From contig JAHEMU010000001.1 of NCBI GenBank assembly GCA_024643485.1, positions 1 through 27,735 of the forward strand: 27,735 bases of DNA. Direction: 5' to 3'. Below are positions 24,549 through 27,613 of this stretch, piece after piece. This DNA is from Cytophagales bacterium. GTDB lineage: Bacteria; Bacteroidota; Bacteroidia; Cytophagales; Cyclobacteriaceae. The position numbers and the translations under genes are program-made. Numbering within the stretch: position 1 is the stretch's first letter; each line of letters begins with the position of its first letter. The notes under the pieces are model-generated. The model did not search any database. It saw only the letters and a program-made list of their open reading frames with translations, and was not told the DNA's origin.

Positions 24549-24657
24549 AGTATTAGGCATTAAAAATGTATAATGGCTAACAAATAATTTAATTTTTTAA
24601 AATAATATCAATGAAAAAGCTGTTTTGTTATTTATATGGTAATAATTTAATGTTTTC

Positions 24658-24689
24658 CTTGAAAATTAATGAAGTAATTTATTCCTTTG
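24658..24689 (+). promoter_or_regulatory. Candidate arg-operon promoter (-33 CTTG, 20-nt spacer, -7 TTCCTTTG)
   Basis: Each element has one mismatch to TTTG / TAnnTTTG and the spacing is plausible; it lies 8 nt before the leader ATG. Confidence 0.45.
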
Positions 24690-24697
24690 TATAGAAT

Positions 24698-24763
24698 ATG
24701 AAATTTAGTTACGCCCATATCACAGAATCATTCTGGCCGTTCTATAGGCCCCTGCTGGGGTAA
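24698..24763 (+). CDS. Putative leader peptide MKFSYAHITESFWPFYRPLLG (21 aa)
   Basis: ATG at 24698 to TAA at 24761-24763, between a candidate promoter and a terminator hairpin upstream of the arg operon. Confidence 0.6.
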   Translation: MKFSYAHITESFWPFYRPLLG

Positions 24764-24774
24764 TTAAATTTTCT

Positions 24775-24799
24775 TGCTGCCTATGGGGCAGTGTTTTTT
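24775..24799 (+). terminator. Leader (attenuator-type) terminator upstream of the arg operon
   Basis: TG-CTGCC-TATGG-GGCAG-TG stem (5 Watson-Crick pairs plus G.U extensions) followed by T6, 45 nt before the GNAT ATG. Confidence 0.7.
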
Positions 24800-24844: not shown

Positions 24845-25498
24845 ATGAAAGTTCAGCTTATGGTGGCGACTAGCAACCATACAGAATTAGCAGAGCAGAT
24901 TGTTGAATTAATTGCAACAGCTGCAAAACTTCGTGGAACGGGGATCGCCCGTCGTGATCCTATGTATATCCGCAAAAAAATGCTCGAAGGAAAGGCAATT
25001 ATTGCCATGGATGGAGAGCAGCCGGTAGGATTTTGCTATATCGAAACCTGGGACAACAAAAAATACGTTGTGAATTCAGGGTTGATTGTACATCCCGATT
25101 ATCGCGGGATTGGTCTCGCTTCAAAAATCAAAGAAGCAGCTTTTAATCTATCTAGGAAAAAATATCCGGGAGTAAAATTATTTGGAATTACCACCAGTTT
25201 AGCGGTGATGAAAATCAACTCTAAATTAGGGTATAAACCAGTTACTTTTTCGGAATTAACACAGGATGAAGCCTTTTGGAAAGGATGTGAAAGCTGTCCA
25301 AATTATGATATTCTCACCCGCAATAATCGAAAAAATTGTATTTGTACAGGAATGTTATACGTGCCGGGAGCGGTGGAAATTAAAAGTAGCGAGCGAAAGA
25401 AAAGAATTGATTTATACTACCGTTGGGTAAAATTGAAACAATTCGGTTTCCTTAAAAAATTTAAAAAATCAAATGAAAAAAGTAGTATTAGCATTTAG
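24845..25498 (+). CDS. GNAT-family N-acyltransferase, probable ArgA-substituting N-acylglutamate synthase
   Basis: Acyl-CoA motif A LIVHPDYRGIGLASKIK and CESC..CIC cluster; first gene of argG-argC-argD. ATG at 24845 is preferred. Confidence 0.8.
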   Translation: MKVQLMVATSNHTELAEQIVELIATAAKLRGTGIARRDPMYIRKKMLEGKAIIAMDGEQPVGFCYIETWDNKKYVVNSGLIVHPDYRGIGLASKIKEAAFNLSRKKYPGVKLFGITTSLAVMKINSKLGYKPVTFSELTQDEAFWKGCESCPNYDILTRNNRKNCICTGMLYVPGAVEIKSSERKKRIDLYYRWVKLKQFGFLKKFKKSNEKSSISI

Positions 25499-26654
25499 CG
25501 GAGGATTAGACACCACCTTTTGCGCCATTCATTTAAATAAAAATGAAAAAATGGAGGTGCATACGGCTTTGGTAAATACAGGAGGATTTTCCAAAGAGGA
25601 ACTTGAAGACATCGCCATACGTGCTAAAAAATTAGGGGTGGCGAGCCATGTCACTTTGGATAAAACACAGGATTTCTATCAAGATTGTGTGCGTTATTTG
25701 ATTTTCGGGAATATGCTCAGAAATCATACGTATCCACTTTCAGTAAGTGCCGAACGTATCTTCCAAGCAGTAGCGATTGCCCAGTATGCGAAAGAAATAA
25801 ATGCCGATGCAATTGCTCATGGGAGTACCGGTGCCGGAAACGACCAAGTGAGATTTGACCTGGCTTTTCAGGTATATTATCCTCAAGCTGAAATTATCAC
25901 ACCAATTCGTGATTTGAAGCTCAGCCGACAACAAGAGGTCGATTTTCTTAAAGAAAACGGTATTTCACAATCGTGGGAAAAAGCTAAATACTCTATCAAT
26001 AAAGGCTTGTGGGGCACTTCAGTGGGAGGAGAGGAGACCCTAACCTCAAGGAAGTCACTACCGGAAGAAGCTTTTCCTTCGACACTTCAAAAGAAAGAAA
26101 ATGAAACGATAGAGATAGCGTTTTTAAAGGGTGAACCCGTAGCGCTGAATGGGAAAAAATTAGACCCTGTGGACTTGATTGTTCAACTCAATACTTTGGG
26201 AAGTGCCTTTGCTATTGGCCGAGATGTGCATGTGGGGGATACCATTATAGGAATTAAGGGAAGGGTAGGTTTCGAAGCACCGGCTCCTTTAATTCTGATA
26301 AAAGCACATCAATTACTAGAAAAACATACGATGACCAAATGGCAGCAGTATTGGAAAGATCAATTGTCGAATTGGTATGCCATGCAATTGCACGAAGGGC
26401 AGTATATGGAGCCAGCATTGAGGAACATCGAACAGTTTTTACAAGATACTCAGCAACGGGTAACGGGAAAGGTTTACGTAAGTTTGAAACCGTATAGGTT
26501 CGAACTGGAAGGGATCGAATCGGCCTTTGATTTAATGAAAAGCGAATTTGGGAGTTATGGAGAGATGAATCTGGCTTGGTCTGGTGAGGATGTAAAAGGC
26601 TTTACTAAAATTATAGGAAATTCATCGAAGATTTACCACTCAATTAAAGAATGA
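25473..26654 (+). CDS. argG: Argininosuccinate synthase
   Basis: VVLAFSGGLDT, HGSTGAGNDQVRFD, YSINKGLWGTS and GIKGRVGFEAP motifs. Confidence 0.97.
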   Translation: MKKVVLAFSGGLDTTFCAIHLNKNEKMEVHTALVNTGGFSKEELEDIAIRAKKLGVASHVTLDKTQDFYQDCVRYLIFGNMLRNHTYPLSVSAERIFQAVAIAQYAKEINADAIAHGSTGAGNDQVRFDLAFQVYYPQAEIITPIRDLKLSRQQEVDFLKENGISQSWEKAKYSINKGLWGTSVGGEETLTSRKSLPEEAFPSTLQKKENETIEIAFLKGEPVALNGKKLDPVDLIVQLNTLGSAFAIGRDVHVGDTIIGIKGRVGFEAPAPLILIKAHQLLEKHTMTKWQQYWKDQLSNWYAMQLHEGQYMEPALRNIEQFLQDTQQRVTGKVYVSLKPYRFELEGIESAFDLMKSEFGSYGEMNLAWSGEDVKGFTKIIGNSSKIYHSIKE

Positions 26655-27613
26655 AAAAAGTAGGAATTATAGGGGGTGCAGGATATGCTGCTGGTGAATT
26701 ACTGAGGTTGCTTTGTTTTCATCCAGAGGTGGAAATATCCTTTGTTCAAAGCACAAGCCAATTAGGCAAGAAAATATCCGATTTACATCCTGATTTATCC
26801 GATTGGACAGATTTGAGGTTTGTTGATGGACCTACCGAAAAAGTGGATGTCATATTTTTATGTACGGGTCATGGAAAAGCAGAACATTGGGTAAATAAAT
26901 TGGGCGATAAAGCGGCAAAACATCTTATTGATTTAAGTGCTGATTATCGGCTATTGAGAAATGAACGTTGGACATACGGTCTTACAGAATACCACCGAAA
27001 TGAAATTAAAAAGGCCGTGAATATTGCTAATCCTGGTTGTTTTGCAACAGCAATTCAATTAGGGATATTGCCTGCTGTTTCTGAGAAAAACGTAAGCGCT
27101 GAATGGCATGTGCATGCAATTACGGGGTCAACTGGTGCTGGTGCTGGACTATCCGATGCTACACATTTTAGTTGGAGATATTCTAATCTTTCAATCTATA
27201 AACCATTTGAGCATCAACATCTGGCTGAAATAAAAGCGACTTTCGCTGAAGTGAACAAAAAAAATGTTCCACCCATAAATTTCCTACCCTTGAGAGGGAA
27301 TTTTACTCGCGGAATATACTGTTCAATGTACACCGATTATGAAGGCACTCAGAATGATGCCTTAGCGATGTATCAAAAATATTATGCGAAAGATCAATTT
27401 GTTAGCGTAACGGACAGTGATATCGATTTAAAGCAAGTAGTAAATACCAACTTTTGCAAGCTATCAGTTAAGGTAATAGGCGGGAAATTATTAGTAATAA
27501 GTTGTATAGATAATTTAATAAAGGGTGCAGCTGGGCAAGCCATTCAGAATATGAACCTATTAATGGGTTTTTCGGAAGATGCTGGTCTGCGCCTCAAAGC
27601 AATAGGTTTTTGA
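26651..27613 (+). CDS. argC: N-acetyl-gamma-glutamyl-phosphate reductase
   Basis: GIIGGAGYAAGELLRLL..HP, IDLSADYR, IANPGCFATA (catalytic Cys), HQHLAEI and IDNLIKGAAGQAIQNMN; ATGA overlap with argG. Confidence 0.97.
   Translation: MKKVGIIGGAGYAAGELLRLLCFHPEVEISFVQSTSQLGKKISDLHPDLSDWTDLRFVDGPTEKVDVIFLCTGHGKAEHWVNKLGDKAAKHLIDLSADYRLLRNERWTYGLTEYHRNEIKKAVNIANPGCFATAIQLGILPAVSEKNVSAEWHVHAITGSTGAGAGLSDATHFSWRYSNLSIYKPFEHQHLAEIKATFAEVNKKNVPPINFLPLRGNFTRGIYCSMYTDYEGTQNDALAMYQKYYAKDQFVSVTDSDIDLKQVVNTNFCKLSVKVIGGKLLVISCIDNLIKGAAGQAIQNMNLLMGFSEDAGLRLKAIGF

Follow-up and report, generated by a model that had tools for sequence, protein, structure and literature searches.

An arginine-biosynthesis operon lies toward the end of the window, that is, the whole stretch of 27,735 nucleotides of Cytophagales DNA that was analysed. 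Ahead of its first gene are found a short upstream open reading frame (uORF), a candidate promoter element and two RNA hairpins, HP1 and HP2, and a gene for a class I/II aminotransferase is divergent from the operon. The features are the following.

24682-24689, forward strand: candidate Bacteroidota -7 box TTCCTTTG, agreeing with the consensus TAnnTTTG at 7 of 8 positions
24698-24763, forward strand: predicted leader peptide gene, 21 codons plus TAA (24761-24763), encoding MKFSYAHITESFWPFYRPLLG
24713-24721, forward strand: GCCCATATC, a copy of the conserved nucleotide motif RCACATA
24734-24736, forward strand: UGG codon (W13), aligned with AGG (Arg) in the three nearest relatives in a nucleotide alignment
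24746-24748, forward strand: single Arg codon AGG, the first triplet of HP1 and the near-invariant putative sensing position of the family
24748-24761, forward strand: hairpin HP1 (GCCCC-UGCU-GGGGU), formed by the Arg-Pro codons and the last codons of the uORF
24762-24774, forward strand: A/U-rich linker from HP1 to HP2, 13 nt in the window
24775-24793, forward strand: hairpin HP2 (UGCUGCC-UAUGG-GGCAGUG), terminator-like, 11 nt past the stop codon
24794-24799, forward strand: U6 tract, which together with HP2 makes a canonical intrinsic terminator in the window's genome
24845-25498, forward strand: GNAT acyltransferase (Pfam), first gene of the operon, with its ATG at 24845
25473-26654, forward strand: argG, argininosuccinate synthase (Pfam PF00764, PF20979)
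26651-27613, forward strand: argC, N-acyl-gamma-glutamyl-phosphate reductase (Pfam PF01118, PF22698)

The ATG of the uORF, at 24698, is 8 nt past the end of the -7 box, and the frame closes at the 3' end of HP1, 11 nt before the stem of HP2. This arrangement, as well as the presence of only one Arg codon (AGG, 24746-24748), had been read from the letters alone in the original prediction and was confirmed. In relatives the -7 box likewise stands 7-8 nt ahead of the leader ATG. Transcription in F. johnsoniae starts 4-5 nt past the -7 box (PMC6847099), so the leader mRNA of the window would be nearly leaderless, with a 5' UTR of about 3-5 nt as estimated from that distance. Several further short ORFs are present in the same AT-rich spacer, so a short ORF by itself is not significant here; the uORF stands above chance because it is conserved among relatives. 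A contig from a second sediment sample was identical over 24560-24753, the UGG codon included. The sequencing runs containing the window's sequence were of DNA only, with no RNA runs among them.

The RCACATA motif was observed 15-24 nt past the leader ATG in Cytophagales, Flavobacteriales and Balneolales (including L002-L108), and it is regarded as an RNA or DNA signal rather than a peptide signal because it occurs in all three codon phases. Its core remains ACAUA whatever the sequence of the HP2 loop. Covariation was found neither with the HP2 loop nor with the linker, and pairing with either was rejected (duplex z = -0.37, cross-locus p = 0.20). The motif may act as a pause site, or it may enhance near-leaderless translation as a CA-rich element.

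The GNAT protein is a candidate N-acyl-glutamate synthase, in that the GNATs nearest to its predicted fold include NAGS, ArgA and Rv2747. It was also considered as an RNA-binding autoregulator, a role rejected since the predicted fold resembles GNAT/NAGS enzymes only. A C-terminal Cys motif, FWKGCxSCxNYDILTRxNRKNCxCTGM (25265-25360, residues ~141-172), lies outside the Pfam GNAT match; C148, C151, C165 and C167 are invariant in 27 sequences, and a long basic helix follows the motif. The motif may form a metal site.

To place the uORF among its relatives, GNAT homologues were gathered from 29 relatives, 80 reference genomes and 80 metagenome contigs. Most of the GNAT loci carry a short ORF at the equivalent place, with a run of Arg codons at its end and usually Pro next. 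A near-leaderless uORF followed by two covarying hairpins recurs in this position in Cytophagales, Flavobacteriales and Balneolales; a conserved uORF upstream of GNAT-argG-argC had been proposed as a check for the first two orders, and it was found there and in the third. Leaders of Cytophagales end in ...TPRLRRPLLG, ...IRCRRPLLGL or FRPNFRPL, those of the nearest relatives in ...RRPLLG or FRPNFRPL, those of Flavobacteriaceae in ...PRRRRP-stop, of other Flavobacteriia in ...RRPLRA-stop, and of Balneolales in ...RRIPRRR-stop. At least three Arg within the last 8 codons of a short ORF were counted in 54% of 171 non-identical upstream regions, compared with 10% of their reverse complements and 3% of shuffles; these and the other family counts overstate significance, since relatives share ancestry and are not independent.

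A covariance model, R1, was built on the two-hairpin region. In the window's genome its sole match was the window element itself (44.7 bits, E = 3e-8), with a score in the upper half of the family, and the R1 search found no further copies there. Under strict filters, R1 found one match each in 28 of 151 genomes of the order, and 25 of the 27 new matches were directly upstream of a GNAT homologue. The window has all the parts by which the element is defined: an in-frame Arg codon as the first HP1 triplet, the A/U linker, the HP2 loop, GNAT-argG downstream and the spacing of the -7 box. As judged by sequence comparison, the uORF is the window's copy of a widespread leader-peptide family of the arginine operon.

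The distribution of the leader was compared with that of ArgR. No ArgR (PF02863) was found in 41 Cytophagales genomes, including that of the window, a reduced MAG of 82.5% completeness, while controls including B. thetaiotaomicron were positive; control through an ArgR operator was rejected on this finding. The loci without a credible leader are those with an ArgR-like ORF (...GTIAGDDT...) immediately ahead of GNAT, observed in Bacteroidales and Marinilabiliales (L040, L049, L050, L055, L058, L062, L064, L080, L084 and L087). ArgR and the leader appear to replace each other.

Whether the frame is translated was addressed in 82 non-identical R1 matches, a set chosen by RNA structure. Upstream of HP1 the uORF frame is open over a median of 39 codons and has an ATG in 66 matches, and it stops a median of 5 codons past the first HP1 triplet. 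Its last 8 codons hold 2.5 Arg, as against 0.38 and 0.11 in the other two frames, in which an ATG and openness occur together in only 10 and 3 cases. The uORF frame is the only one that is open, ATG-started and Arg-rich across the set. The first HP1 triplet encodes Arg in 80/82 matches (AGG in 61), a figure partly built into the model, which the openness of the frame is not. The proposal of an unannotated leader peptide gene for the arginine operon is thus upheld by conservation in relatives and by the frame test.

The number of Arg codons in the critical 8 is one in 10 of the 82 matches, two in 33, three in 23 and at least four in 15. At least two are present in 71 of the 82, whereas the window has only one and so no tandem codons. 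The earlier statement that the leader lacks tandem cognate codons is right for this copy but wrong for the family, which is rich in rare Arg codons. The copy of the window has lost one such codon, because the UGG column of W13 reads AGG in L110, L002 and L003, a single-base A-to-U change. Furthermore, AGG accounts for 58% of Arg codons in the upstream part of the leaders vs 6% in the adjacent arg genes, and the leaders of Flavobacteriia use CGC/CGT while their genes use AGA. In the window's genome AGG makes up 12% of Arg codons, or 4.4 per 1000 codons, and a tRNA-Arg(CCU) gene is present. This preference for rare Arg codons is the pattern expected if tRNA charging is sensed. Independent leaders with a single Arg codon also exist (L211/L212 and L203), for example one ending in ...TQPRP-stop. 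From these comparisons, what the coding sequences conserve is a run of rare Arg codons and not a peptide sequence.

The two-hairpin structure was derived from an alignment of 35 loci. In the family HP1 starts at the last Arg codon (AGGCCC...GGGUCU or CGCCCC...GGGCG) and is 67-79% paired, with CG/UA compensatory changes; the stop codon is at its 3' edge in 60/82 matches, as it is in the window, and within its loop in 11/82. The linker is 10-13 nt long (median 11) and 78% A+U, and the Arg codon is 24-29 nt from the base of HP2. HP2 is a stem of 7-8 bp whose cells are 93% paired, with compensatory changes in 7/7 pairs and a covariation score of 0.64-0.72, whereas shuffles scored 0.17-0.19 and slid controls no more than 0.27. 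Its closing pairs switch between CC..GG and GG..CC across the family, and its pentaloop is U-R-N-G-U/C in nearly all members (UACGU 32, UAUGU 14, UGCGU 10); the UAUGG of the window fits U-R-N-G-N. In the window HP2 with its U6 tract ranks second-best among the terminator-like sites of 20 kb, and at least 5 U within 8 nt past HP2 are found in just 11 of 82 relatives. The usual tail is pyrimidine-rich and G-poor, with 9.6% G and 22.6% C in the first 60 nt. The window and six relatives had no match in Rfam at E <= 1-10, T-box and riboswitch families included. Sequence comparison establishes the homology, a frame predicted to be translated, an excess of rare Arg codons in it, two hairpins at a constant distance from each other, and an association with the arg operon alone.

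Based on these findings, the uORF is probably the leader-peptide gene of a ribosome-mediated arginine attenuator used by many Bacteroidota and Balneolales that lack ArgR. Transcription would begin a few bases ahead of the leader ATG, and a ribosome would read the short frame until it arrives at one or more rare Arg codons, and HP1 always opens with the last of them. Under a shortage of charged tRNA-Arg (here of the CCU isoacceptor for AGG), the ribosome would wait and keep HP1 open; when arginine is ample, it would reach the stop codon, which lies where HP1 ends on its 3' side, and depart, and HP1 would fold. The state of HP1 would then set the fraction of polymerases passing HP2, here a hairpin with U6, into GNAT-argG-argC. 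In this scheme we infer the stalling, the polarity (shortage turns the operon on) and the output step. Points against this reading are the one Arg codon of the window, where classical attenuators rely on several, the failure to find an antiterminator, and the small number of relatives with a U-tract past HP2.

The search for an antiterminator covered seven pairings, tested against cross-locus permutations or shuffles, of which the cross-locus controls are blind to pairing of invariant motifs. In folds masked by a ribosome footprint at each Arg codon or at the stop codon, HP2 stayed intact at 12 representative loci. The classical 2:3 antiterminator, in which the 3' arm of HP1 and the linker pair with the 5' arm of HP2, gave -4.1 for self and -4.8 for cross combinations, and the fold of segments 2 and 3 had z = 0.03. 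Pairing of the start-codon region with the linker (p = 0.16 across the family, strong only in the window and its nearest relative, L110), of the 5' part of the ORF with the 3' half of HP2 (p = 0.34, strong only in L002 at -19 kcal/mol), of the HP1 3' arm or the Arg codons with the pyrimidine tail and of the Arg codons with the HP2 3' arm (p >= 0.98), and a role of HP2 as antiterminator of a downstream terminator (p = 0.80) were all rejected. Outside 2:3 the candidate pairings gave p = 0.16-1.0, and none was better than controls. A T-box-like UGGN was rejected as well, since N varies and the motif is missing where the HP2 closing pairs are flipped.

Two of these pairings were observed in single lineages. 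In the window, 24696-24712, which includes the leader AUG, can pair with 24760-24775 at -13.2 kcal/mol, and in L110 positions ~619-631 can pair with ~690-700 at -10.9 kcal/mol, with sequences that differ from those of the window; by these predicted folds the pairing could shut off further translation of the leader. In L002 (1345-1470, the same as L030), leader codons 4-10 pair with the HP2 3' arm and tail at a predicted -19 to -20 kcal/mol, and part of this alternative pairing repeats the HP2 5' arm (AUUGCC). The pairing may represent an antiterminator confined to this lineage.

A frameshift at the hungry codon, by which the ribosome would move on through HP2, was also considered. In 59/83 cases no stop interrupts the -1 frame from the HP1 Arg codon through HP2, vs 43 +/- 4.6 in shuffles, an imperfect null, and no slippery site was evident in the 82 R1 matches. 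In the window, readthrough by frameshifting was rejected: a -1 slip on UAU-AGG would bring UAG into the A site, and the +1 frame stops at 24765.

The family is not a switch of the trp type, because masked folds keep HP2, the pairings are no better than controls and U-tracts are few. Intrinsic termination is not its general output either, because a U-tract past HP2 is found in only 11/82 relatives; for the window, the output would most simply be termination at HP2 and U6. By reasoning and not from data, coupling of ribosome and polymerase alone would yield no polarity or the wrong one. The right polarity would require, on the same reasoning, a ribosome that persists on the Arg codon and either unfolds HP1 or shields the leader RNA. 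Unfolding of HP1 would abolish a two-part target, HP1 with HP2, on which a negative factor acts, and shielding would be from Rho or an RNase.

It is possible, though less probable than the scheme set out above, that the sensor is the same but its readout is trans-acting: folded HP1/HP2 would be targeted by Rho, by NusA/NusG-assisted termination, by an RNase or by an RNA-binding protein, and a ribosome parked on the Arg codon would erase the target or shield the leader RNA. Two static covarying hairpins at constant spacing, with a conserved loop sequence and no alternative pairing found, are consistent with such a target, as are the G-poor, pyrimidine-rich 60 nt past HP2 and the Rho encoded in the window's genome, and orf34 offers precedents for both Rho and RNase G (PMC6386406). 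Set against this, each factor named is a candidate, a low G content may be usual for 5' UTRs in Bacteroidota, and HP2 with U6 in the window resembles a factor-independent terminator, which shielding would not relieve. In a more specific form, judged doubtful, the attenuator would have no switch at all, and the static HP1/HP2, the 11-nt spacing and the U-R-N-G-U loop would make up the site recognised by a factor that acts in trans in termination or decay. If this were true, a ribosome on the HP1-first Arg codon would erase the site, and one hungry codon would suffice. In Balneolales (L031-L037), G-free repeats of the CACUCACUC type were observed 60-100 nt before GNAT; they resemble a Rho utilisation site or a CA-rich translation enhancer.

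The attenuator reading applies to the family, and the state of the window's copy was weighed separately. This copy could be a decaying relic of an Arg-rich ancestor that has lost sensing, its HP2 and U6 acting as a constitutive or otherwise controlled partial terminator. One Arg codon against the 2-4 of most relatives, the AGG-to-UGG change at codon 13, the only moderate rarity of AGG at the frequency given above and the reduced genome are what decay would leave. However, the -7 box spacing, the ATG, the open frame, the invariant AGG, HP1, the 11-13 nt linker and HP2 are all intact, the R1 score places the copy among the upper half of family members, single-Arg leaders are also carried by independent lineages, and no ArgR was found that could have assumed control. 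A relic is therefore rather unlikely, and by a modest preference the copy is taken to be a still working but less sensitive sensor: a working sensor is somewhat likelier than a relic because single-Arg leaders exist, one AGG suffices in the rbfL leader of S. aureus, and the other parts are intact.

In the original prediction, the aromatic-rich nascent peptide may itself stall the ribosome in dependence on arginine or ornithine. Read as an arrest peptide in the manner of SpeFL, TnaC or the fungal arginine attenuator peptide, it would, with its aromatic residues and R-P, bind either amino acid in free form inside the exit tunnel. The proposed arrest determinants F3, Y5, F12, W13, F15 and Y16 are unconserved even in the nearest relatives (MTTLLQHLPAGFRPNFRPL, MTLRVTHIAATPRLRRPLLG, MKLLATYIPSSIRCRRPLLGL), so the aromatic residues are lineage-specific, and W13 is a one-base derivative of AGG. 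Conservation of the peptide as a whole is absent among relatives, the shortest members of the family have just 13-14 aa (e.g. MNTSLQILRVRVRA), and Pro and the residues past it are accounted for by base pairing, as they are the coding of the HP1 3' arm. The bias to rare codons indicates tRNA sensing. A stall at high arginine would need to turn the operon off, and we know of no bacterial precedent for this in such a geometry. In favour of the peptide are that RP is the most conserved dipeptide (63/110 tails vs 46 +/- 4.6 in shuffles), that about one tenth of relatives end in RP-stop, that hydrophobic-[TS]-P ahead of the Arg run is enriched (20 vs 6.1 +/- 2.2) with all synonymous codons used, and that no RNA switch was found to explain a classical readout. 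The modest enrichment of hydrophobic-[TS]-P and RP is the only hint of selection on the peptide.

A resemblance to the C-terminus of SpeFL had also been suggested. SpeFL is a 34-aa peptide with a HIRRXXH ornithine sensor, including the conserved R12 and R13, and an effector with a Phe core of F20, F26, F28, F30 and F31; in the stalled state R34 occupies the P site and the ribosome has reached the stop codon (Herrero del Valle et al., bioRxiv 10.1101/604074). Every one of these defining features is missing: HIRRXXH is absent (the window has ...AHITES... and no RR), and there is no Phe core in a peptide of 21 aa whose C-terminal half contains two Phe and whose last residues before the stop are RPLLG. 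Homology to SpeFL or TnaC was rejected, as there is no sequence similarity and the downstream genes are GNAT, argG and argC, not speF. The window peptide had no match among PDB chains at E <= 10 and matched no Pfam family. Arginine status is very probably reported via the ribosome, as had been proposed, while the part of that proposal concerning an arginine- or ornithine-binding arrest peptide is unsupported and very improbable. That the frame is a chance ORF left untranslated, with only the RNA hairpins mattering, is highly improbable, since the other short ORFs of the spacer, which suggest it, are outweighed by the frame test on structure-defined matches, the enrichment of Arg tails and the rare-codon bias.

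Classical attenuators (trpL, hisL, leuL, thrL, pheL and ilvL of Enterobacteria) rely on several cognate codons. The leader-peptide family described here shares with them a short ORF at what would be the transcript start of a biosynthetic operon, cognate codons near its end that overlap a first hairpin, a second hairpin next, with a U-tract in the window, and a sensor that is presumably tRNA charging. It differs from them in its amino acid, arginine, in its near-leaderless mRNA and in a host not using Shine-Dalgarno; an antiterminator competing with the terminator could not be detected, the second hairpin carries a conserved pentaloop and in most cases lacks a U-tract, and the window has a single cognate codon. 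In E. coli pyrE and pyrBI, the leader ORF ends ~8-14 nt before a hairpin and the speed of RNA polymerase is set by UTP. As there, a ribosome at the stop codon would abut or overlap the base of the hairpin and no antiterminator helix would be required, but Arg codons in the same geometry would yield the wrong polarity. TnaC ends in RP-stop, and with TnaC, SpeFL and the fungal arginine attenuator peptide the window leader has in common a uORF before a metabolically related gene and an R-P near the C-terminus. Those peptides have a conserved sequence and sense a free ligand, whereas here only the Arg run and Pro are conserved and the choice of codons points to tRNA sensing.

The closest precedents for reading arginine through codons are two other bacterial uORFs. 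In Salmonella orf34, low arginine leads to pausing at Arg codons, which alters the fate of the downstream mRNA and its RNase G sensitivity, and translation of orf34 blocks Rho (Ben-Zvi et al. 2019, PMC6386406). The leader of the window has in common with orf34 (speFL) of Salmonella and E. coli speF that it is a bacterial uORF, for which Arg-codon pausing there is a precedent; orf34 controls a catabolic, polyamine gene, whereas the window leader precedes a biosynthetic operon and is without sequence similarity to it. The rbfL leader of S. aureus is a very short uORF in which a single rare AGG/AGA senses arginine limitation via scarce tRNA-Arg (Kohl et al. 2026, PMC13009471). Its output is occlusion of the downstream RBS, so that starvation turns a biofilm regulator off (PMC13009471). 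Here the regulated unit would be a biosynthetic operon, and the main ORF begins ~80 nt downstream, with two conserved hairpins in between.

Control of arginine biosynthesis by the ArgR repressor is textbook knowledge, and attenuation by a leader peptide is on record for Trp, His, Leu, Thr, Phe and Ile/Val. Full-text searches of open-access papers found no account of a leader peptide ahead of a bacterial operon for arginine biosynthesis, which agrees with the original prediction, where none was known. The element is best read, from its sequence, as belonging in reduced form to a family of arginine leader peptides that is apparently undescribed and has a non-classical readout. A readout other than that of the trp paradigm is proposed because no antiterminator is detectable and the loop of the second hairpin is conserved. 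What is new is that HP1 opens with an invariant Arg codon, that the leaders favour rare codons, that HP2 covaries, keeps its loop conserved and stands at a fixed spacing, and that the tests for an antiterminator were negative. The one-codon variant of the leader is new as well, together with its origin. The window's copy is informative since it is reduced to the one invariant codon of the family, the place where sensing must occur. In conclusion, the findings suggest that large parts of the Bacteroidota, without ArgR and without Shine-Dalgarno initiation, read arginine via a near-leaderless uORF with rare Arg codons.
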